From Chloroflexota bacterium (GTDB lineage Bacteria > Chloroflexota > Anaerolineae > Anaerolineales > UBA11579), in assembly GCA_016191875.1 (NCBI GenBank), contig JACPVG010000003.1:100683-164682 (forward strand): a stretch of DNA of 64,000 bases, written 5' to 3'. Made by a program: the position numbers and the translations under genes. Positions 1,229 to 64,000 of this stretch are shown in pieces (positions within the stretch are counted from its first letter, which is position 1; each line of letters begins with the position of its first letter). The notes beneath the pieces were generated by a model. That model made no database searches. It was given only the letters and a program-made list of their open reading frames with translations, and was not told the origin of the DNA.

Positions 1229-2163
1229 AGTCCCCCGCCAAGCGGCTCACCGCCGGGCAGGCGCTGCGCGCCCTCGGCACGCTGATTGCGCTGGGCCTGA
1301 TGGCCTGGCTGCTGGCCCGCCAGTGGAGCGACATCACCCGCGCCCTGAGCGAGATGGACGCCGCCCGCTTCTGGGGCGCGTTCGGGCTGGTGATGGCTTC
1401 GCGGCTGTTCGTTTCCGCCCGCTGGCACATGCTGCTGCGCGGGGCCGCTGCCGGGATTCGCTTCCCGGAGAGCGCCCGTATCACCTTCGCCGGGCTGTTT
1501 GCCGCCAACTTTCTGCCCACCACCATCGGCGGCGACGTAGTGCGGCTGGGCGGGGTGATCGCCCGCGGGCACGGCGCGGCGCTGGCAGCCGCCTCGCTGG
1601 TGATGGACCGCCTGGTGGGCATGGCCGGCATGGCTGTTTTTGCACCCTTCGGCGCGGCCCGCGTGATGGCCGGCGGCCTGCTGGGCGCAGGTCACTCGGC
1701 CGGGCTGGCGCTGTCCCTGCCCGGGAAACTCAAACGCAACGCGGCCTACGCCCTGCGGCGGCTGGGCGACATCGCCCGCACCTGGCTGCGCCGCCCGCAA
1801 TTCCTCCTGGCCTCGCTGTTCTTCACCGCCCTGCACATGGCGGTCTGGTTCGCCGCCATGTGGCTCCTGCTAGACGGCCTGAACGACCGCATGCCCTACT
1901 TCCTCATCGCCAGCCTGTGGAGCCTGGTGTACTTCATCACCCAGATTCCGATTTCGATCAACGGCCTGGGCGTCCAGGAACTGTCGATCGCCTACATCTT
2001 CGCCGCCTTCGGCGGGGTGAGCGACCACAGCGCCCTGGTGATGGGCCTGGTCTTCCGCGTGCTGGTCACGCTCGCCAGTCTGCCGGGCGCGCTGTTCGTC
2101 GGCCAGTTGCTGCCCACGCTCGACCGCGCCAAATCCGTCCTTGAGGGTCTCCGTGAAACTTAA
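1225..2163 (+). CDS. Flippase-like / lysylphosphatidylglycerol-synthase-TM-domain (UPF0104) polytopic membrane protein
   Basis: 312 aa, about 8 hydrophobic segments. The N-terminal pattern (LGTLIALGLMAWLLARQW) is typical of UPF0104. Translationally coupled on both sides. Confidence 0.65.
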   Translation: MKSPAKRLTAGQALRALGTLIALGLMAWLLARQWSDITRALSEMDAARFWGAFGLVMASRLFVSARWHMLLRGAAAGIRFPESARITFAGLFAANFLPTTIGGDVVRLGGVIARGHGAALAAASLVMDRLVGMAGMAVFAPFGAARVMAGGLLGAGHSAGLALSLPGKLKRNAAYALRRLGDIARTWLRRPQFLLASLFFTALHMAVWFAAMWLLLDGLNDRMPYFLIASLWSLVYFITQIPISINGLGVQELSIAYIFAAFGGVSDHSALVMGLVFRVLVTLASLPGALFVGQLLPTLDRAKSVLEGLRET

Positions 2164-2908
2164 ACCCAAGCGCGCCAAATACCTGGACGCCGACCCGGCG
2201 CCGCTGCGCGCCGGCGAATACCAGGAAAAGGGCGACTACCACATTCACCTCAACCCCAACTGGCCGTATCTGCCGGTCTATCTGGCCAAGATGGACCACG
2301 CCCGGAACTTCCTGGCGCGCCACGCCCAGGGGAGAAAAGTCATTGACCTGGGCGCGGGCGAGGGCGTACTGGTGCGGCGCTGCCAGGAGGAACTCGGGCT
2401 GGACATCATCGGCCTGGACATCAACTACCAGTCCGAAGTGGTGGTGCACGGTGATATTCTCGACCTCCAGTACCCGGACGCCAGTTTCGACATCGTCACC
2501 TGCCTGGACGTCATCGAGCACATGCACTTCCACCAGCAGGAAATCGCCCTTGCGCAGATGTTCCGCATCCTCAAGCCCGGCGGCCAGTTGCTGGTCTCGG
2601 TGCCCAACCTGGCGCACTTCGCCTCGCGCTTCACTTTCCTGTTCCTCGGCAAACTGCTGCGCACCTCCACCATCGACCGCCACATCGGCGACCGCCCGGC
2701 CGGGGAATACGTCGCCCTGCTGCGGGCGGCCGGGTTCGAGATCCGCCGCCGCAAGGGGATGTTCCCGACCTTCCCGCTCATTTCAGCCCTCACGTACTTC
2801 ATCCCGTCAAAGGTCGTCGGGCTGCACCGGTTGTACAACGCGTTGGCGGGCGTGCCGGGCTGGTGTTTCCTGAACGTGTTCGAGGCCGTGAAACCGGCCG
2901 CCGAATAG
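2141..2908 (+). CDS. Class I SAM-dependent methyltransferase
   Basis: 255 aa. Motif I VIDLGAGEGVL, then DIVTCLDVIEHM and LKPGGQLLVSVPN. Start is TTG 2141 or GTG 2153 and overlaps the upstream stop. Confidence 0.8.
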   Translation: MRVSVKLKPKRAKYLDADPAPLRAGEYQEKGDYHIHLNPNWPYLPVYLAKMDHARNFLARHAQGRKVIDLGAGEGVLVRRCQEELGLDIIGLDINYQSEVVVHGDILDLQYPDASFDIVTCLDVIEHMHFHQQEIALAQMFRILKPGGQLLVSVPNLAHFASRFTFLFLGKLLRTSTIDRHIGDRPAGEYVALLRAAGFEIRRRKGMFPTFPLISALTYFIPSKVVGLHRLYNALAGVPGWCFLNVFEAVKPAAE

Positions 2909-56353: not shown

Positions 56354-57199
56354 ATGAGCAACGCCAGGAAAATCGCGCTGGTGATCGGCTGGGGGAGTGT
56401 GAAGTGCGCCGCCGCCCTGGGCGTGCTGCGCGTCCTGCACCGGGCGGGCATCCAGATCGACCTGCTGGTGGGCGGCGGCGGCGGGAGCATCTACGCCGGG
56501 CTGGCCGCCCTGGGGCATACGGCGGATGAGATCGTCGAGATGAATGCCCGCCTGTGGACGCGCGAAGTGACCGAGCAGCCCAACCGCCTGGCTCCGCTGC
56601 AACTGCTCTTCCCGCGCCAGTTCAAGGCCCGCGAGTTCTTCTACCTGCGCGGCGACCGGCTGGTCAACCAACGCCTGCAGGCCGCCTTCGGCGAGCGCAC
56701 CTTTGCCGACTGCACGATTCCCCTCTTCATCACCGCCACCGATTACCTGACCGGCGAACAGGTCACGCTCACCGACGGGCCGCTGTGGGAGGCCGTGCGG
56801 GCCAGCATCGCCCTGCCGCTGGTGTTCGCGCCGGTGCGGCGCGGCGGCCGCCTGCTGGCGGATGGCTATCTCTCCGACCCGCTGCCCGTGGGCGTGGCGA
56901 TGCGCGAAGGCGCACAGATCATCCTGGCGCTGGGCTTTGAGAGCACGCCCATCCTGCCGCTGGACACGTTCGGAAAGTTTGTGTTCCATATCCAGAGCGT
57001 GATGACCGACAACCTGCTGAAAGCCTCATATTCCTTCCACAATATGGCGCATCATGCCGAAGTGCTACCCATCTTTCCAGACTTCGAACGACCCATTCAC
57101 CAGTTCGACACCCAGGCCGTGCCGCACATCATTGAGGTCGGTGAACGCGCCGGTGAGAAAATCCTGCCCGCCCTGCAGCGTCTGCTGGAGGGCGGATGA
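56354..57199 (+). CDS. Patatin-like phospholipase family protein (atypical nucleophile region)
   Basis: IALVIGWGSVKCAAALGV. VGGGGGSIYAG sits in place of GxSxG. ADGYLSDPLP (DG). Paralogue of the next gene. Confidence 0.75.
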   Translation: MSNARKIALVIGWGSVKCAAALGVLRVLHRAGIQIDLLVGGGGGSIYAGLAALGHTADEIVEMNARLWTREVTEQPNRLAPLQLLFPRQFKAREFFYLRGDRLVNQRLQAAFGERTFADCTIPLFITATDYLTGEQVTLTDGPLWEAVRASIALPLVFAPVRRGGRLLADGYLSDPLPVGVAMREGAQIILALGFESTPILPLDTFGKFVFHIQSVMTDNLLKASYSFHNMAHHAEVLPIFPDFERPIHQFDTQAVPHIIEVGERAGEKILPALQRLLEGG

Positions 57200-58044
57200 G
57201 CGCGCCCGCTAAACAGCGCGTGGCCCTGGTCATTGGCGCCGGCGGCCTCAAGTGCGCCGCGGCGCTGGGCACCTGGCGGCGGCTGGTGGAGGCGGGCATC
57301 GCCATCGACCTGGTGGTGGGCTGTTCCGGCGGGGCCATCTTCGGCGCGCTGGCGGCGCTGGGCTTTGAGCCCGAGCAGGCCGCCAAGACGGCCATGAAAC
57401 TGTGGCTCGGCGACGTCACCAAGCGGGTCAACTATGCCGCCCTCGGCCGGGCCTCCCTGCCCGGTCTGCTGAAATTCAACGAACGCTTTGGCATCTTCAA
57501 GGACACCCGGCTGCGCATCGGCTTCGAGGCCGCCTACGGCAAGTTCACGATGTTCGAGCAGACCCGTATCCCGTTCCATGTGGTCACCACCGACCTGCAT
57601 ACCGGAAAGCCGGTGGTGCTCAACCGCGGGCGGGTGGCCGAGGCGGTGCGCGCCAGCGCTAGCGTGCCGGTGGTGTTCGAGCCGGTGCTGCTGAACGGGC
57701 GAATGCTGATGGATGGCGCCATCTCCAACCCGCTGCCGGTGGACGTGGCGGTGCGCGAAGGCGCCGACCTGATCATCGCCGTGGCTTTCGAGACGCCCCG
57801 CCAGCCGGACGTGCGCACAGCCGGGGCCTACGCCCTGCAGATGTTCGCCAACATCACCAACCAGCTGCTGGCCTACCAGTTTGCCGCTGCCAACCTGATG
57901 CACCACGCCGAGATCGTCACCATCGCGCCGCACTTCGAGCAGAATATCTCCTTCAACGATGTCGCCAGGATTCCGTTCATCATCGAACAGGGCGCGCTGG
58001 CCGCCGAGCCACACCTGGACTATTTGAAGCGGCTGCTGGGGTAA
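57196..58044 (+). CDS. Patatin-like phospholipase family protein
   Basis: VALVIGAGGLKCAAALG. GCSGG (GxSxG). MDGAISNPLP (DGA). ATGA overlap with the upstream paralogue. Confidence 0.85.
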   Translation: MSAPAKQRVALVIGAGGLKCAAALGTWRRLVEAGIAIDLVVGCSGGAIFGALAALGFEPEQAAKTAMKLWLGDVTKRVNYAALGRASLPGLLKFNERFGIFKDTRLRIGFEAAYGKFTMFEQTRIPFHVVTTDLHTGKPVVLNRGRVAEAVRASASVPVVFEPVLLNGRMLMDGAISNPLPVDVAVREGADLIIAVAFETPRQPDVRTAGAYALQMFANITNQLLAYQFAAANLMHHAEIVTIAPHFEQNISFNDVARIPFIIEQGALAAEPHLDYLKRLLG

Positions 58045-58485: not shown

Positions 58486-59637
58486 TTAGGGCCCGGTTCC
58501 CGGCCCTACCCCCGGCGGCAGGCCGCAGCCTTCCAGCGTCACGATGTTGCAGCCCTCGATGACACAGCCCTCGCCGGTGATGAAGTTGCAGTTCTCCAGC
58601 AGCGCGCACTCCGGGTAGACCGACGAATCGCAGAACGCCCCCAGCAGGCAGCCCTCGCCCGTCACCAGGTTGCAGCCCCAGGGCAGCGTGCAGCCTTCCC
58701 CCGTATCCGGGTCACAGCCGGGCGGCAGGTCGCAGCCCTGGCCGGTGATGGGGTTGCAGCCGGAGGGCAGCGTGCAGCCCAGGCCGGTGGCCGGGTCGCA
58801 GTCCGGCGGCAGGTCGCAGCCCGCGCCGGTCAGCGGGTCGCAATCCAGCGGCAGTTCACAGCCTTCGCCGGTGGCCGGGTCGCAGCCTTCCGGTAGGTCG
58901 TCCGGGTCCAGCAGCCCCTGGTCAACCGCCAGGTTCACCGCCCCCGGCACGTTGGCGATCCAGGCGTTCAACTGATAGGGTTCCATGCGCTCGGGCGGGG
59001 TGGGCGGCGCGCCGGCGTCCAGGATCTCGGCGCGCTGGCCGCCGCTGAACTGCACGCTGCCCAGGCTGTTGGCGACGCTGCACACGCCCTCCAGGCAGGT
59101 GGCGAACAACTGCCCCAGCGCGTTCAGGCGCACGCCCAGCCAGGTGCCGCGCACCGAGGCCGTCCCGGAAATGGTATCCACCTTGAATGTGCCGCCGCCC
59201 AGCGCCCCTTCCAGGATGACGAACAGTTCGCCCTTCAGCAGTTCGAGCAGCGTCTGCGGCTCGGCCGTGGTCCCTGAAAGGTCATGCAGGATGAACAACG
59301 TGTTGGGGGCCAGGCGCGCCAGCGTGCCTTCGCTGAAGGCCACAGCCGCCCGGCTCTCCGCGCCGGTGTTCACCCGGTTGCCGTTTTCCAGCGCCTGGTC
59401 GACCTGGGCCGCCAGCCATTCTTCCTGCTCGAACGGCTGCCAGAACACCTCATTCTCGAGTTCGCTCAGCCAGGCCTGGCGCGGGCCGGCGGGCGTTTCG
59501 GCAGCGGCCAGGGCGGCCGCGCTGGCAGGCACAGCCGTCGGCGCGTCCCCGCTGGGCGTGGTGAGGGTGAGGTTGCAGGCGACCGCCAGCAGGGCAGCGG
59601 CGCTCAGGATGGTAAGAAACGGAGAACGGATATTCAT
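58486..59637 (-). CDS. Secreted FecR-domain protein with a C-terminal Cys-rich tandem-repeat region
   Basis: Signal peptide (LLAVAC). FecR-like segment RAAVAFSEGTLARLAPNTLF. Nine 14-residue CxPxTGxGCxLPxx repeats. Confidence 0.7.
   Translation of the reverse strand: MNIRSPFLTILSAAALLAVACNLTLTTPSGDAPTAVPASAAALAAAETPAGPRQAWLSELENEVFWQPFEQEEWLAAQVDQALENGNRVNTGAESRAAVAFSEGTLARLAPNTLFILHDLSGTTAEPQTLLELLKGELFVILEGALGGGTFKVDTISGTASVRGTWLGVRLNALGQLFATCLEGVCSVANSLGSVQFSGGQRAEILDAGAPPTPPERMEPYQLNAWIANVPGAVNLAVDQGLLDPDDLPEGCDPATGEGCELPLDCDPLTGAGCDLPPDCDPATGLGCTLPSGCNPITGQGCDLPPGCDPDTGEGCTLPWGCNLVTGEGCLLGAFCDSSVYPECALLENCNFITGEGCVIEGCNIVTLEGCGLPPGVGPGTGP
58510..58884 (-). repeat. Nine tandem 42-bp coding repeats (CxPxTGxGCxLPxx)
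   Basis: Residues 252-376: CDPATGEGCELPLD, CDPLTGAGCDLPPD, CDPATGLGCTLPSG, CNPITGQGCDLPPG, CDPDTGEGCTLPWG, CNLVTGEGCLLGAF, CDSSVYPECALLEN, CNFITGEGCVIEG, CNIVTLEGCGLPPG. Confidence 0.85.
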
Positions 59638-59734: not shown

Positions 59735-60505
59735 TCACCCGGCTGAAGCCTCGACCCCGGAAGCGTGAAGCGGTTTCTGCCACACCACGTACAGGCCCAA
59801 ATCCCCCGTCGCGCCGTCATCCAGGAAGGTTTCGAGCGCGTCAAACCCCGCCTCTCCGGCCAGCCCGGCCAGTTCGCCGGCGCTGAAATGGTGGACGTAA
59901 CGCAGGCCGGGTTCGTCCTCGGCGCGCCAGTCGAGCAGGGTGTCGCCTTCGTCCACTTCGGATTCATTCAGCCCGGCCGCTGCCCAGGGCTGGACCCGCC
60001 CGGCCAGTTTGGGGCTGTTGCGGAACTGCCAGACCGAGAGGGAGAACTGCCCGCCATCGGCCAATGCGGCGTGGACCTGATTCAGGAATGTCCGCCGCAG
60101 GTCGCGGCCGGGCAGGTGGTGAAGGGTGGCGAAGCAGACGGCAAATTGGTAATTGGCAACCGGTAATTGGGAACGCCATCCCCCGGTGAGGTCGGTTTCC
60201 ACAAAAGTGAAATTGCCTGCCAGGCCGCGCGCCCGCGCCGCCGCCAGCAGGGCGGCGCTGGCGTCCAGCCCCAGGTAGTCGCCGGCAAAGCCCTGTTCCG
60301 CCAGAAACGCCGCCGCTGTGCCGTTGCCGCAGCCCAGATCCAGGACGCGCGCCCCAGCCGGCACGCGCCCCAGCAGCCGCGCCGCGCCGGGGTTGGCGCG
60401 CCCGCGCGTGGCCGAGAACGACGCCGCCCGGCTCTGGTAGAATTGACGGTTAAGTTCGAGCAGGTGAGCGACAACTGTCGAATCCACATGCCGATTGTAA
60501 GACAA
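59735..60505 (-). CDS. Class I SAM-dependent methyltransferase with Trm9/ALKBH8-MT-like motifs
   Basis: FSATR, LDLGCGNG, TLHHLPGRDLRR, SVWQF, DTLLDW and RYVHHFSAGEL. Start is TTG 60505 or GTG 60487. Confidence 0.75.
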   Translation of the reverse strand: MSYNRHVDSTVVAHLLELNRQFYQSRAASFSATRGRANPGAARLLGRVPAGARVLDLGCGNGTAAAFLAEQGFAGDYLGLDASAALLAAARARGLAGNFTFVETDLTGGWRSQLPVANYQFAVCFATLHHLPGRDLRRTFLNQVHAALADGGQFSLSVWQFRNSPKLAGRVQPWAAAGLNESEVDEGDTLLDWRAEDEPGLRYVHHFSAGELAGLAGEAGFDALETFLDDGATGDLGLYVVWQKPLHASGVEASAG

Positions 60506-60592
60506 AAGGCCAACGCGTGATGCGGCATCGAGTTACCAAGGGTTTCCTCATTCCTCGTCGCCCCGGCAACTTGTCGGCCTGTTCAGAAAACA

Positions 60593-62257
60593 ATGACTGA
60601 GAAACTGGAGCACGCCCAAACCCCCGCCTGGCGGGCGGCCAAACGCCACTCGCCGGAACGCCTGGCCGCCGCGCGCCTGGCGCTGGAAGCCGTGCAGGCC
60701 GGCATGGACGTGTTCGACGCCATCCAGAAGCACCCCATCCCGGCCGAGTTCGGCGGCGGCTACCTGGGCAAGCACCACCTGGTGGCCGCCTACCGGCAGT
60801 TGGTCGAAGCCGATGCCATCGAGGAAGACCCGGCCCTGCTGGCGCGCATCCGCATGAAACCTATGCGCACCCAGAGCGGCGTGACGGTTGTCACCGTGCT
60901 CACCAAGCCCTACCCCTGCCCCGGCAAGTGCGTGTTCTGCCCCACCGACTACCGCATGCCCAAATCCTACCTGCCGGACGAACCCGGCGCGATGCGCGCC
61001 CTGCATTACGAGTTCGACCCCTACGCCCAGGCCGCCGGGCGCATCGCCCAACTGGAAGCCGTCGGTCACCCGACCGACAAGGTCGAACTGCTCATCCTGG
61101 GCGGCACCTGGAGCAGTTACCGCAAGGACTACCAGGAGTGGTTCGTCAAAGAACTGTTCGCGGCGCTCAACAGCCTGCCGTCCACGCCGGAAGGCGAAGC
61201 CGGCCCCTATTCCCTCGAAGAGCTGCAGGCGCTGAACGAAACCGCCGCCCATCGCAACGTCGGGTTGGTCATTGAAACCCGCCCCGACCACGTGAACCCC
61301 GAAGAACTGGGCTGGCTGCGCCGTTTGGGCGTCACCAAAGTGCAGATGGGCGCGCAGAGCCTCGACGACCGCATCCTCGACCTCAACCAGCGCGGCCACT
61401 CCGTGGCCGAGACGCACACCGCCAGCGCCCTGCTGCGCGCCGCCGGCTTCAAGATCGTGCTGCACTGGATGCCCAACCTGCTGGGCGCCACGCCGGAGAG
61501 CGACCGGGAGGACTTCACGAAATTGTGGGCTGGCCTGTGCCCGGACGAGATCAAGATCTACCCCTGCCAGCTGCTGGAAAACGCAGACCTGTACCAGAAC
61601 TGGCAGCGCGGCGAGTACCGGCCCTATACCACAGACGAACTGGTCAGCCTGCTGGCCGACATCAAGCCCGGCATCCCGCGCTACTGTCGCGTCAACCGGG
61701 TCATCCGCGACATCCCCAGCACCAACGTGGTGGCGGGCAACCGGGTCACCAGCCTGCGCCTGGACGCCCAGCGCGAACTCCAGCGGCGCGGCCTGCGCTG
61801 CCAGTGCGTGCGCTGCCGCGAGGTGCGCGGGGCGGCGGTTGACCCAGAGGCCCTGATCTTCCACAACCTGACCTACCCGGCCGGCTGCGCCGAAGAGCGC
61901 TTCCTCTCGTTCGACACGCCCGATGACCGGCTGGCGGGTTTCCTGCGCCTCTCCCTGCCCGCGCCGGACGCGCCCGCCACCGGCCTGCCCGACCTGGACG
62001 GCGCGGCCATTATCCGCGAGGTGCATGTGTACGGCCAGTCGCTGGAGGTGGGCGAGGAACAGGCCGGCGCGGCCCAGCACATCGGCCTGGGCACACGTCT
62101 GCTGGAGGAGGCCGAGCGCATCGCCTGCGAGCAGGGTTACGCCCGCCTGGCGGTCATCGCCGCGGTCGGCACGCGCCGCTACTACGCCGGCCGCGGCTTT
62201 GAGATGGGGGCGCGGTATATGGTCAAAGATCTGGTCACCGAGGCAACAGGTCAATGA
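60593..62257 (+). CDS. elp3: Elp3-family radical SAM / GNAT enzyme (tRNA U34 carboxymethylation type)
   Basis: 554 aa. CPGKCVFCP (CX3CX2C). LILGGTWS, ETRPDHV, VQMGAQSLDD, HWMPNL. C-terminal GNAT with REVHVYG...QHIGLGTRLLEEAE. Confidence 0.88.
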   Translation: MTEKLEHAQTPAWRAAKRHSPERLAAARLALEAVQAGMDVFDAIQKHPIPAEFGGGYLGKHHLVAAYRQLVEADAIEEDPALLARIRMKPMRTQSGVTVVTVLTKPYPCPGKCVFCPTDYRMPKSYLPDEPGAMRALHYEFDPYAQAAGRIAQLEAVGHPTDKVELLILGGTWSSYRKDYQEWFVKELFAALNSLPSTPEGEAGPYSLEELQALNETAAHRNVGLVIETRPDHVNPEELGWLRRLGVTKVQMGAQSLDDRILDLNQRGHSVAETHTASALLRAAGFKIVLHWMPNLLGATPESDREDFTKLWAGLCPDEIKIYPCQLLENADLYQNWQRGEYRPYTTDELVSLLADIKPGIPRYCRVNRVIRDIPSTNVVAGNRVTSLRLDAQRELQRRGLRCQCVRCREVRGAAVDPEALIFHNLTYPAGCAEERFLSFDTPDDRLAGFLRLSLPAPDAPATGLPDLDGAAIIREVHVYGQSLEVGEEQAGAAQHIGLGTRLLEEAERIACEQGYARLAVIAAVGTRRYYAGRGFEMGARYMVKDLVTEATGQ

Positions 62258-62323
62258 GTGATGCGGAAGGCTTAGTTCCTCGTTGACGCATACCTCGTTG
62301 ACCTTCAGAACCCAAGGGCCACA

Positions 62324-63124
62324 ATGACCTCCACCAATCCCGTCATCACCCTCACTACCGACTTCGGGCTGCGGGATGGTTTCGTCGGCGTGATGAAGGG
62401 CGTCATCTACGGCATCTGCCCCCATGCCCACATCGTCGACATCAGCCACGACGTCGGGCCGCAGGACGTGCGCGAAGGCGCCTACGTGCTGGCGCGCCAG
62501 GCATTCTACTTCCCGGAGAACACCGTGCACATCGCCGTGGTGGACCCCGGCGTGGGCACCGCCCGCCGCCCGCTGGCGGCCAGGGTCGGCCAGCATTTCT
62601 ATGTCGCCCCGGATAATGGCGTCTTGACCCCGGTCTACGAAAAGGCCGGGCAGGAAGGCTGGCCGCTGCACGTGGTGCAGCTCAACAAGCCGGAATACTG
62701 GCTGAAGAACATTTCGTACATCTTCCATGGCCGCGACATCTTCTCGCCGGTAGGGGCGCACCTGGCGTGCGGCGTGCCGCTGGAAGAGGTCGGCGACCCG
62801 ATCGACGACCCGGCCTACCTGCGGCTGCCCCGCCCGGAGTTTGAGGGCGGCATCTGGCAGGGCGAGGTGACGCACATCGACCACTTCGGCAACATCGCCA
62901 GCAACATCCACCGCGAGCACGTCGGCGCCGGGCAGGTGCAGGCAGCCCGCGTGGGCGGCCAACGCGTGGCGGACTGGGTCAACGCCTTCGGCGACCGGCC
63001 GCCGGGCACGCTGGTGTGCCTGTACAGCAGCATCGATTTTGTCATCGTGTCGGAGGTCAATGGCGACGCCGCGGCGCGCCTGGGCGTAAAGGTGGGGGAC
63101 GCGTTTGAGGTGGAAATAGCTTGA
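62324..63124 (+). CDS. SAM hydroxide adenosyltransferase / SAM hydrolase family (DUF62)
   Basis: VITLTTDFGLRDGFVGVMKGVI, VVDPGVGT, APDNGVLT, FHGRDIFSPV, IDHFGN. Confidence 0.85.
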   Translation: MTSTNPVITLTTDFGLRDGFVGVMKGVIYGICPHAHIVDISHDVGPQDVREGAYVLARQAFYFPENTVHIAVVDPGVGTARRPLAARVGQHFYVAPDNGVLTPVYEKAGQEGWPLHVVQLNKPEYWLKNISYIFHGRDIFSPVGAHLACGVPLEEVGDPIDDPAYLRLPRPEFEGGIWQGEVTHIDHFGNIASNIHREHVGAGQVQAARVGGQRVADWVNAFGDRPPGTLVCLYSSIDFVIVSEVNGDAAARLGVKVGDAFEVEIA

Positions 63125-63915
63125 ACCCCTCCGGCGTCATCACCCTCACCACGGATTTCGGCGGCGGGGGCGGGGTGCTGCGCGGCGTCATCTGGGGCAT
63201 CGCGCCCCACGCCCAGGTGGCCGACCTGACCCACGCCATCGAACCGCAGAACATCCGCATGGCCGCCTGGTACCTCACCCGCCAGGTGTTCTTCTTCCCG
63301 GAAGGCAGCGTGCATGTGGCGGTGGTGGACCCCGGCGTGGGCACGCCGCGCCGCCCGCTGGCCGTGCAGGCCGGGCCGCAATACTTCGTCGGGCCGGACA
63401 ACGGCCTGTTCACGCCCTTCTACGAAATGGCCGAGGAGCGCGGCTGGCCGCTCAAGGTCGTCCACACGGATAACCCCGACTACTGGTTGTCGAAAGTCAG
63501 CGATGTATTCCACGGCCGCGATATCTTTGCGCCGGTGGCCGCGCATCTGGCACGCGGCGTGCCCATTGAAGACCTTGGGACGCCGGTGACCGCTGCGGTG
63601 CGCGTGCCCTTCCCGCGCCCGCAGCGCAATGGGGATGAGTTGCACGGCGAAGTCATCCTCCTCTACCGCCATCTCGGCAACATCATCACCAACATCGACC
63701 GCCCGCACCTGAACGGCATCGACCCGGCCGGCGTGACGGTGCAATTCGGCGGGACGGCGATAAATGGCCTGGCGCGCACCTTCGGCGAACGCCAGCCGGG
63801 CGAACTCATCGCCCTGTTCGGCAGCAACGACGAATTGATGATCTCGGTGGTCAATGGCAGCGCCATCGAGATGCTCAAGCCAGAAATAGGGGACCCGGTC
63901 CTCGTCCGGTTCTGA
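63121..63915 (+). CDS. Second, divergent DUF62 (SAM hydrolase family) paralogue
   Basis: TTG start overlapping the upstream stop (TTGA). VITLTTDFGGGGGVLRGVI, VVDPGVGT, GPDNGLFT, FHGRDIFAPV. YRHLGN sits in place of IDHFGN. Confidence 0.8.
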   Translation: MNPSGVITLTTDFGGGGGVLRGVIWGIAPHAQVADLTHAIEPQNIRMAAWYLTRQVFFFPEGSVHVAVVDPGVGTPRRPLAVQAGPQYFVGPDNGLFTPFYEMAEERGWPLKVVHTDNPDYWLSKVSDVFHGRDIFAPVAAHLARGVPIEDLGTPVTAAVRVPFPRPQRNGDELHGEVILLYRHLGNIITNIDRPHLNGIDPAGVTVQFGGTAINGLARTFGERQPGELIALFGSNDELMISVVNGSAIEMLKPEIGDPVLVRF

Positions 63916-64000
63916 CCGGTTCTTGATCCGCCTCAAGCGCCGGATTCCCCTGGAGATGCCCACATGAAACGCCTCTGGATGTTACGCTGGATGATTTTTG

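Follow-up and report, generated by a model that had tools for sequence, protein, structure and literature searches.

Does a bacterium that carries Elp3 also carry the enzyme that acts after Elp3 in eukaryotes? There, the step from Elp3 to Trm9, which takes 5-carboxymethyluridine (cm5U) to 5-methoxycarbonylmethyluridine (mcm5U), is the textbook pathway. The question is raised by a 64,000-nucleotide stretch of contig JACPVG010000003.1 from a Chloroflexota bacterium of the class Anaerolineae (the window, meaning here the whole stretch that was analysed), in which an Elp3 gene lies divergently beside a gene for a class I S-adenosylmethionine (SAM)-dependent methyltransferase and is followed by two tandem genes of the DUF62 family (Table 1). 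A preliminary description of this DNA had proposed that the four genes together form a SAM-handling module for transfer RNA (tRNA) modification. Its observations were confirmed, as all four open reading frames (ORFs) were recovered with the positions and strands that it had given them, the 87-bp divergent gap included, and every motif that it had quoted is present in the translations; its interpretation is partly supported. The reading that we favour, with a probability of about 0.62, is a two-gene divergent module for the tRNA wobble uridine, in which Elp3 would make cm5U and a Trm9-like enzyme would convert it to mcm5U, with the DUF62 genes as bystanders.

Gene order is the strongest and the decisive evidence for this pairing. 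The window Elp3 was searched against 185,579 species genomes, and relatives were found in at least 566 of 600 candidate stretches. The neighbourhoods compared here are the best 80 of these at least 566 loci, all from Anaerolineae metagenome-assembled genomes, with Elp3 proteins 64–85% identical to that of the window (loci carry numbers with the prefix L). By tblastn, 75 of the 80 loci have the methyltransferase gene upstream of Elp3 and on the other strand, which makes 75 of the 77 that are assessable, given that L006, L018 and L065 end no more than 1,051 bp upstream of Elp3. The other genes that flank the pair in the window, namely recO, two patatin-like genes and a FecR-domain gene, each recur in a handful of loci or fewer, and an unbiased clustering of the ORFs from the 80 Anaerolineae loci found no other real neighbour of Elp3 in more than 27 of them. 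This clustering was muddied by antisense shadow ORFs, due to the high guanine-plus-cytosine (GC) content, with which the methyltransferase cluster was merged, and it was used for the 27-locus limit only.

A gene encoding phosphoadenylyl-sulfate reductase, cysH, is absent from the window and was found directly upstream of Elp3 in 26 of the 80 Anaerolineae loci (for example L013:5079-5828 on the plus strand, L024:5163-5912 and L026:5227-5970; NF002537, 256 bits against a cutoff of 154). In 24 of the 75 loci with the methyltransferase, cysH stands between the two genes on the Elp3 strand, the methyltransferase still being the next gene, and in L018 and L065 the contig edge falls at a cysH gene. 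Co-transcription of cysH with Elp3 is possible.

The pair recurs in a second class of the phylum. Loci of Dehalococcoidia were retrieved with the sequence of the Dehalococcoides mccartyi Elp3 (DmcElp3) as query, the structure of which (5L7J) was reportedly solved by Glatt in 2016. A divergent Trm9-like neighbour is present in five of six Dehalococcoidia genome loci (CP019867, L082, L085, L086 and L088) and missing in L083. In D. mccartyi CP019867 it is a 224-aa class I methyltransferase encoded divergently, 43 bp upstream of the crystallised DmcElp3. The Dehalococcoidia methyltransferases share only about 26% identity with that of the window, carry more canonical Trm9 motifs (LVPW, RYYHLF and RNICLL) and keep eight out of eight essential Trm9 residues, with Y18 replaced by F. 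Their profile finds Trm9 at rank 2 in the PDB (E=2.2e-17) and aligns with fungal Trm9 in hhalign at 99.7% (E=1e-26). Among 80 metagenome loci retrieved with the Dehalococcoidia-type methyltransferase, 63 are assessable (at least 400 bp upstream), and Elp3 lies divergently upstream in 51 of these (81%). Since almost all of the related genomes examined have the pair, that of DmcElp3 among them, bacteria probably run a pathway of the Elp3-to-Trm9 type. Synteny with Elp3 is thus conserved in other genomes and no grouping with small-molecule methyltransferases was found, the opposite outcomes being those that the preliminary description had named as telling against its proposal.

Other genes around the Dehalococcoidia pair were also recorded. 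The pair lies 2–3 kb from queH, which encodes epoxyqueuosine reductase, itself an enzyme of position-34 tRNA modification, in a conserved ruvB-queH-GNAT block (queH at L081:3140-3688, L082:2767-3327, L085:1484-2047 and L086:1134-1694). The separate GNAT gene is two to three genes from the methyltransferase (for example L081:3765-4406). On a contig labelled Bacteroidota, possibly mis-binned, the genes for SAM synthetase (metK) and S-adenosylhomocysteine hydrolase (ahcY) occur no more than 4 kb downstream of Elp3 (L087:4071-5527); the upstream flank of this locus is too short for it to be counted for the methyltransferase.

By its sequence, ORF 60593-62257 is a bona fide Elp3, to which cm5U formation at uridine 34 (U34) is assigned by family, and the identification made in the preliminary description holds. 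It matches NCBIfam TIGR01211 with 479.4 bits against a cutoff of 350 (residues 71-547 on profile positions 40-522 of 522), as well as PF04055 (Radical_SAM, 48.8 bits) and PF16199 (Radical_SAM_C, 67.7 bits), and its translation contains CPGKCVFCP, ETRPDHV, VQMGAQS and HWMPNL. The best PDB match is DmcElp3 (5l7j, E=1.5e-112; 42% identity over 466 aa), followed by the Methanocaldococcus infernus protein MinElp3 (E=2.5e-109) and by yeast, mouse and human Elp3 (about 1e-80); the scores with MinElp3 and DmcElp3 are almost equal (370 and 380 bits). The cluster motif CPGKCVFC aligns with CPGKCIYC of DmcElp3, the zinc-site cysteines are aligned too, and the KAT domain is aligned over the whole length of its counterpart in 5l7j, with the acetyl-CoA motif QHIGLG against QHRGLG. 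The Pfam GNAT match taken alone is weak (17.3 bits, below cutoff). An identity as MnmL/YtqA (TIGR01212) was rejected, with 58.8 bits against a cutoff of 180 and a match confined to the shared radical SAM C-terminal region. Anaerolineae Elp3 proteins conserve an extension of about 90 residues at the N-terminus (residues 1-90 in the window protein, 60593-60860), which is absent from DmcElp3 (459 aa). Considering that a review attributes the weak tRNA binding and activity of DmcElp3 to its short N-terminus (PMC7663514), the longer Anaerolineae protein may be better suited to biochemistry.

The methyltransferase is the less obvious partner, and here the comparisons support a Trm9-like rather than a generic enzyme, as the preliminary description had argued. 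Its translation contains FSATR, LDLGCGNG, TLHHLPGRDLRR, SVWQF, DTLLDW and RYVHHFSAGEL, and the pairing of each motif with Trm9 that had been proposed was recovered by HMMER and also by MAFFT and hhalign. Given that all three methods reproduce it (hhalign at E=1.2e-21), the motif alignment to Trm9 is far beyond chance. The hhalign match, between the profile of a 42-member alignment of the window methyltransferase family and 16 fungal Trm9 proteins, reaches 99.4% over 186 columns and takes in the N-terminal Y-x6-FSxTR helix, which lies outside the Rossmann core. When the same family profile was searched against the PDB, Trm9 (5cm2_Z) came at rank 5 (E=3.9e-12) and was the only near-full-length match among the top profile matches (profile 25-222 against chain 2-181 of 205), those scoring above it spanning the Rossmann core alone. 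A hidden Markov model (HMM) of fungal Trm9 matches the window protein with 46.2 bits (E=5.7e-13). In the reverse direction, this HMM was run on all ORFs of at least 100 aa in the window and 88 loci (1.08 Mb) and gave 82 matches, 81 of which are Elp3-adjacent methyltransferases, with 57–68 bits for the Dehalococcoidia type and 27–56 bits for the Anaerolineae type. The remaining match, at 24.3 bits and thus below every Elp3-adjacent methyltransferase, is another ORF of the window that resembles class I methyltransferases (2042-2905, plus strand).

The AlphaFold2 model of the methyltransferase has a Rossmann-type fold (predicted local distance difference test score, pLDDT, of 93), and in a Foldseek search 5cm2_Z has the best target-normalised template modelling score (TM-score) among the top matches (0.83). 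The identity with eukaryotic Trm9 is about 23%, and the Anaerolineae type, the Dehalococcoidia type and fungal Trm9 are at roughly equal mutual distance. Many homologues about 50% identical to the window protein are already named 'tRNA (uracil-5-)-methyltransferase TRM9' by the Joint Genome Institute (JGI) pipeline. The family is large: a search of the representatives of 1.84 billion proteins gave 1,445 family clusters at E<=1e-30, the top 150 all scoring above 210 bits and all in-family. CmoM, set aside as an identity, is absent from the 25 best NCBIfam and 60 PDB matches listed, no test aimed at it having been made.

Some long members of the family have additional domains. Three representatives (P0245, 547 aa; P0249, 421 aa; P0252, 419 aa) carry an in-frame DUF559 insert (PF04480, 108–115 bits), a Vsr-like endonuclease domain that splits the methyltransferase fold, with motif I on one side and the HH motif on the other, and looks mobile or intein-like. 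Another member (P0259, 429 aa) has a C-terminal GNAT fusion (Acetyltransf_9 and Acetyltransf_1).

The residues needed by Trm9 allow a closer comparison. In yeast Trm9 (ScTrm9), the alanine mutants of D72, H116, W145 and W168 are inactive, mutants of R29, R241, Y243 and N271 retain about 1–10% of activity (Y243A about 10%, N271A about 4%), H115A retains about 25%, and H24, K31, R122, E148, Q149 and D270 are dispensable; R29 and H116 position the carboxylate, and N271 is proposed to read O2 and N3 of U34 (Letoquart et al. 2015, PMC4678810). We mapped these positions on a joint MAFFT alignment of 20 members of the window family, 5 Dehalococcoidia neighbours and 16 fungal Trm9 proteins, with the Yarrowia Trm9 (P0391) taken as reference because 11 out of 11 checked positions fit the Yarrowia numbering of that paper. 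The window family keeps six of the eight essential residues, and these are invariant in 20 out of 20 members: R34 (equivalent to R29), D81 (D72), H130 (H116), W159 (W145), W193 (W168) and R202 (R241). Y23 (Y18) and H129 (H115) are invariant as well. HMMER and hhalign pair W159, W193 and R202 with Trm9 in the identical way. Of the positions that yeast Trm9 can do without, several lack conservation in the window family.

On these grounds, the following course of the pathway can be proposed. The [4Fe-4S]/SAM domain of Elp3 would make a 5'-deoxyadenosyl radical, a chemistry established for the family, and this radical would activate the acetyl group of KAT-bound acetyl-coenzyme A (acetyl-CoA), giving cm5U at tRNA U34; Elp3 enzymes form cm5U34 from acetyl-CoA via a SAM-derived radical (PMC6367351, PMC7663514, PMC13315578). 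The Trm9-like enzyme would then methylate the carboxylate of cm5U from SAM, yielding mcm5U, or 5-methoxycarbonylmethyl-2-thiouridine (mcm5s2U) if U34 is thiolated, a step to which homology and gene linkage point. By analogy with yeast Trm9, R34 and H130 would position the carboxylate, H129 would read uracil O4, W159 would stack on the base, and W193 and R202 would hold the nucleotide. The short intergenic region shared by the two genes would permit their co-regulation.

Several observations weigh against this reading. L019 and L061 in Anaerolineae and L083 in Dehalococcoidia lack the methyltransferase despite ample flank (several kb), and because every example comes from one phylum, common descent rather than selection could account for part of the synteny. 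A single-sequence PDB search with the window methyltransferase ranks Trm9 (5cm2_Z) only 49th (E=0.027), the top matches being uncharacterised methyltransferases, and in the Foldseek search it comes at rank 6 among about 1,300 significant class I methyltransferases of the PDB, so that the fold alone is not discriminating. These low ranks are due to the similarity shared by class I enzymes in general, which dominates such searches. The methyltransferase might accordingly be a generic enzyme acting on small molecules or proteins, with the pairing as a frozen gene-order accident in Chloroflexota, and the library scans are in line with this, since only generic Pfam models match and the NCBIfam matches are all far below their equivalog cutoffs. 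However, the silence of NCBIfam is uninformative, as it has no model that detects even the genuine Yarrowia Trm9 (P0391, 0 matches). In addition, the pairing persists while the other flanks turn over, and it has outlasted a divergence that leaves the two classes with 42% identity in Elp3 and about 26% in the methyltransferases; the insertion of cysH between the pair did not part the genes further; and conservation reaches past the SAM pocket to the active-site residues of Trm9. A frozen accident is therefore already disfavoured, and we consider it very improbable.

The residues that are not kept raise a closer alternative. Y243, which corresponds to V204 of the window protein, is replaced throughout the family, by V in 15 of 20 members and by A in the other 5, whereas it is kept in 5 out of 5 Dehalococcoidia neighbours and 16 out of 16 fungal Trm9 proteins. 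At the N271 column, the window protein has V240 and the family has Q in 12, S in 5, G in 2 and V in 1 of its members, an assignment that is uncertain because the column crosses a family-specific hairpin insertion and the hhalign alignment ends before it; N271 is kept in 5 out of 5 Dehalococcoidia neighbours. Given these two replacements, the substrate pocket of the window subfamily may differ from that of Trm9. Also particular to the family are invariant residues not seen in Trm9 (N19, F22, S157, Q160, S164, D188, D192, D230 and G231), about 15 extra residues inserted behind the W159 strand, and a terminal hairpin that is longer than in Trm9. With Y243 not conserved, we regard the window methyltransferase as a divergent Trm9-like subfamily that cannot yet be called a strict Trm9 orthologue.

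It could thus be that the enzyme acts on Elp3-modified tRNA without being an mcm5U synthase, either because it takes another xcm5 intermediate, such as a thiolated or amidated form, as its substrate or because its methylated product is a different one. Two of eight essential residues replaced in 20 out of 20 family members, when the Dehalococcoidia type keeps all eight, together with the family-specific residues and insertion, would suit this possibility, and the synteny with Elp3 supports it as strongly as it does mcm5U synthesis. On the other hand, the carboxylate-positioning R34 and H130 and both essential tryptophans are intact, the residual activities of the yeast Y243A and N271A mutants indicate that replacement need not alter the chemistry, glutamine, the commonest residue at the N271 column, has the same amide group, and a canonical Trm9-like protein fills the equal genomic slot in Dehalococcoidia. 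We consider a different xcm5 substrate unlikely, and mcm5U synthesis remains our preferred assignment.

Two further points also count against mcm5U synthesis by the pair. A simple pattern search found no Trm112-like zinc-knuckle ORF in the window or the 88 loci, and no fusion to Trm112 or Elp3 was seen among the long members of the methyltransferase family. According to a review, in vitro formation of cm5U34 has been shown for the archaeal MinElp3, and direct evidence from bacteria, in the form of xcm5U nucleosides from any Elp3-carrying bacterium, is wanting. As for the usual bacterial route, a pattern search found no MnmE or MnmG signatures in the window, a span of 64 kb that is uninformative for genome-wide absence.

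The two DUF62 genes remain to be placed. As the preliminary description had reported, they are tandem paralogues after Elp3, and both proteins have SAM_HAT_N (PF01887, 187.9 bits for DUF62a and 161.5 for DUF62b) and SAM_HAT_C (PF20257, 60.9 and 52.1 bits), with a 4-base TTGA overlap of the genes and 48% identity to each other. Against the (R)-SAM hydrolase models they score 180.8 and 175.7 bits (NF058624, cutoff 350) and 164.6 and 136.4 bits (NF053629, cutoff 470). With scores about half the NCBIfam equivalog cutoffs, they appear to be members of the family rather than equivalogs of the characterised (R)-SAM hydrolases, and their stereoselectivity is only predicted. They share the two-domain SAM_HAT architecture and full-length NCBIfam matches with the DUF62 (R)-SAM hydrolases of this family (PH0463 and those of Thermus, Sulfolobus and Haloferax), and differ from them in these lower scores and in being two tandem paralogues. 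According to a 2025 preprint (bioRxiv 10.1101/2025.08.29.672840), the substrate of such enzymes is the inactive (R)-sulfonium epimer of SAM, the hydrolysis of which serves salvage.

In the four-gene model of the preliminary description, DUF62 would tune the SAM supply or clear a by-product of the other enzymes. The layout in the window suits that model, as DUF62a begins 66 bp past the Elp3 stop, in the same orientation and without a convincing terminator in the gap, six related loci (L002-L007) also have DUF62 after Elp3 although they differ in their other flanks, and all four proteins bind SAM. However, DUF62 after Elp3 was found only in the window and in these 6 of the 80 Anaerolineae loci, with a tandem second copy in L005 and L007 only, and it is missing after Elp3 in the other 74, including the closest relative, L001 (85% Elp3 identity), as well as in the 6 Dehalococcoidia genome loci and the 80 metagenome loci. 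The DUF62-positive loci are among the closest Elp3 relatives, so that shared ancestry accounts for them. Neither the by-products of Elp3 (5'-deoxyadenosine, methionine and CoA) nor that of the methyltransferase (S-adenosylhomocysteine) is a DUF62 substrate, and (R)-SAM is not a by-product of either enzyme, which leaves the proposed by-product processing unsupported. Thus, of the conserved neighbourhood that had been expected around bacterial Elp3, the methyltransferase is borne out (75/77 in Anaerolineae, 5/6 in Dehalococcoidia) and DUF62 is not (6/80 in Anaerolineae). Given this narrow synteny and a family of housekeeping (R)-SAM hydrolases, a four-gene module lacks support, and we judge it improbable. 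In the two-gene module that we prefer, the DUF62 genes are most likely lineage-specific neighbours, possibly co-transcribed and not components of the module; they would be housekeeping (R)-SAM hydrolases, non-obligatory and placed after Elp3 in a small lineage only.

Table 1. Features of the Elp3 locus in the window
Feature	Coordinates	Strand	Remarks
Trm9-like class I SAM-dependent methyltransferase	59735..60505	-	256 aa, TTG start; divergent subfamily of Anaerolineae
Divergent intergenic region, methyltransferase/Elp3	60506..60592	.	87 bp; presumed promoters of both genes
Stand-alone bacterial Elp3 (radical SAM + KAT/GNAT; predicted tRNA U34 carboxymethyl synthase)	60593..62257	+	554 aa
DUF62a, SAM hydroxide adenosyltransferase family, probable (R)-SAM hydrolase	62324..63124	+	266 aa; neighbour, probably outside the tRNA module
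DUF62b, paralogue of DUF62a	63121..63915	+	264 aa; TTG start overlaps the TGA stop of DUF62a

The limits of the features deserve brief comment. The gene caller starts the methyltransferase at 60487, 6 codons further in, giving a protein of 250 aa and a gap to Elp3 of 105 bp. The intergenic region gave no match to the sigma-70 consensus, for which reason the promoters are only inferred, and the promoter and terminator scan there was not above the expectation from shuffled sequence. A terminator-like hairpin lies at 63906-63919, at the end of DUF62b, the count of such sites being likewise not above shuffle expectation. The GC content of the window is about 65%.

On the other side of the methyltransferase, the adjoining gene (58486-59637, minus strand) encodes a 383-aa FecR-domain protein with C-terminal Cys-rich repeats of about 12 residues each (C-D/N-P-x-T-G-x-G-C-x-L-P, about eight copies); it is conserved in L001 and L002 only. 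Further out, 56354-57199 and 57196-58044, both on the plus strand, are tandem paralogous ORFs of about 281 aa with a 4-bp overlap, which resemble patatin-like phospholipases as judged by eye and are conserved in L001 only. Tandem paralogues with overlapping start and stop codons thus occur twice in this DNA, the patatin-like and DUF62 pairs being within 8 kb of each other.

A broader proposal can be put forward more tentatively, as a possibility that we would not yet expect to hold: that Chloroflexota of the classes Anaerolineae and Dehalococcoidia make mcm5U or mcm5s2U at U34 with only a stand-alone Elp3 and a Trm112-independent Trm9 homologue. This would be a complete pathway of the eukaryotic and archaeal type, one that would have been gained as two linked genes and may have taken the place of MnmE/MnmG. 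In Anaerolineae, the enzyme would then be a Trm9 with a re-tooled pocket (V or A for Y243, N271 absent), maybe of modified specificity. Elp3 is widespread in Chloroflexota and almost always accompanied by the Trm9-like methyltransferase. Bacterial Elp3 has served as a structural model for Elongator chemistry, and what it produces in bacteria is now a question about two proteins. The Anaerolineae Elp3 with its longer N-terminus is possibly a more active bacterial model, and the pair offers a Trm9 that is naturally free of Trm112, or unlinked to it, for mechanistic comparison.

The searchable literature, in which Glatt et al. 2016 was not covered, yielded no description of a bacterial Elp3-Trm9 pair. 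In the papers covered, DmcElp3 is called 'a rare example' or Elp3 is said to be confined to Dehalococcoides, and the neighbouring gene is unmentioned; a 2017 review states that bacterial homologues of the methyltransferases that partner Trm112 are not detectable. To this extent the claim of the preliminary description that no such pair had been described stands. Its novelty was nevertheless overstated, because clustering of the Elp3 and Trm9 genes is known in Sulfolobus solfataricus (Grosjean 2008, as cited in PMC6144793 and PMC5372719) and the JGI pipeline already names the homologues TRM9.

Among the known systems close to that of the window is DmcElp3 (5L7J; Glatt 2016, Lin 2019), likewise a stand-alone Elp3 from the same phylum with its own divergent Trm9-like neighbour; it differs in being without the N-terminal extension and in having a neighbour of a more canonical Trm9-like type. 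Eukaryotic Trm9/ALKBH8-MT with Trm112 (5CM2, PMC4678810) shares the class I fold and motifs that are collinear from the Y-x6-FSxTR helix to the RY-x-H strand, together with equivalents of R29, D72, H115, H116, W145, W168 and R241, and it too acts downstream of Elp3. The window type departs from it at Y243 and N271, in its insertion and in its terminal hairpin, and its gene is physically paired with Elp3, whereas eukaryotic Elp3 works in the six-subunit Elongator. Both eukaryotic and archaeal Trm9 need Trm112, for which the pattern search of the loci gave no candidate near the window gene.

Among bacteria, the closest analogue in logic is MnmL (YtqA) and MnmM (YtqB) of Firmicutes (bioRxiv 10.1101/2023.12.21.572861), where an Elongator-like radical SAM gene adjoins a class I methyltransferase gene and both enzymes act on the C5 side chain of U34. 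These, however, convert 5-carboxymethylaminomethyl-2-thiouridine (cmnm5s2U) to 5-methylaminomethyl-2-thiouridine (mnm5s2U) downstream of MnmEG, MnmL is without a KAT domain, and MnmM methylates an amine, not a carboxylate. A further parallel is found in archaea. In Haloferax volcanii, mcm5U is documented, and Trm9 (HVO_1032) acts with Elp3 (HVO_2888) and Trm112 (PMC6144793, PMC5372719); archaeal Trm9 has been reported only in Sulfolobales and Halobacteriales. As in the window, archaeal Elp3 stands alone, with no further Elongator subunits, the Trm9-type enzyme is a separate protein, and the two genes are clustered in at least one lineage; the difference is that the host is here a bacterium. 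The Elp3 and Trm9-like pair of Chloroflexota would extend a known pathway to a new domain of life rather than constitute a new kind of system.

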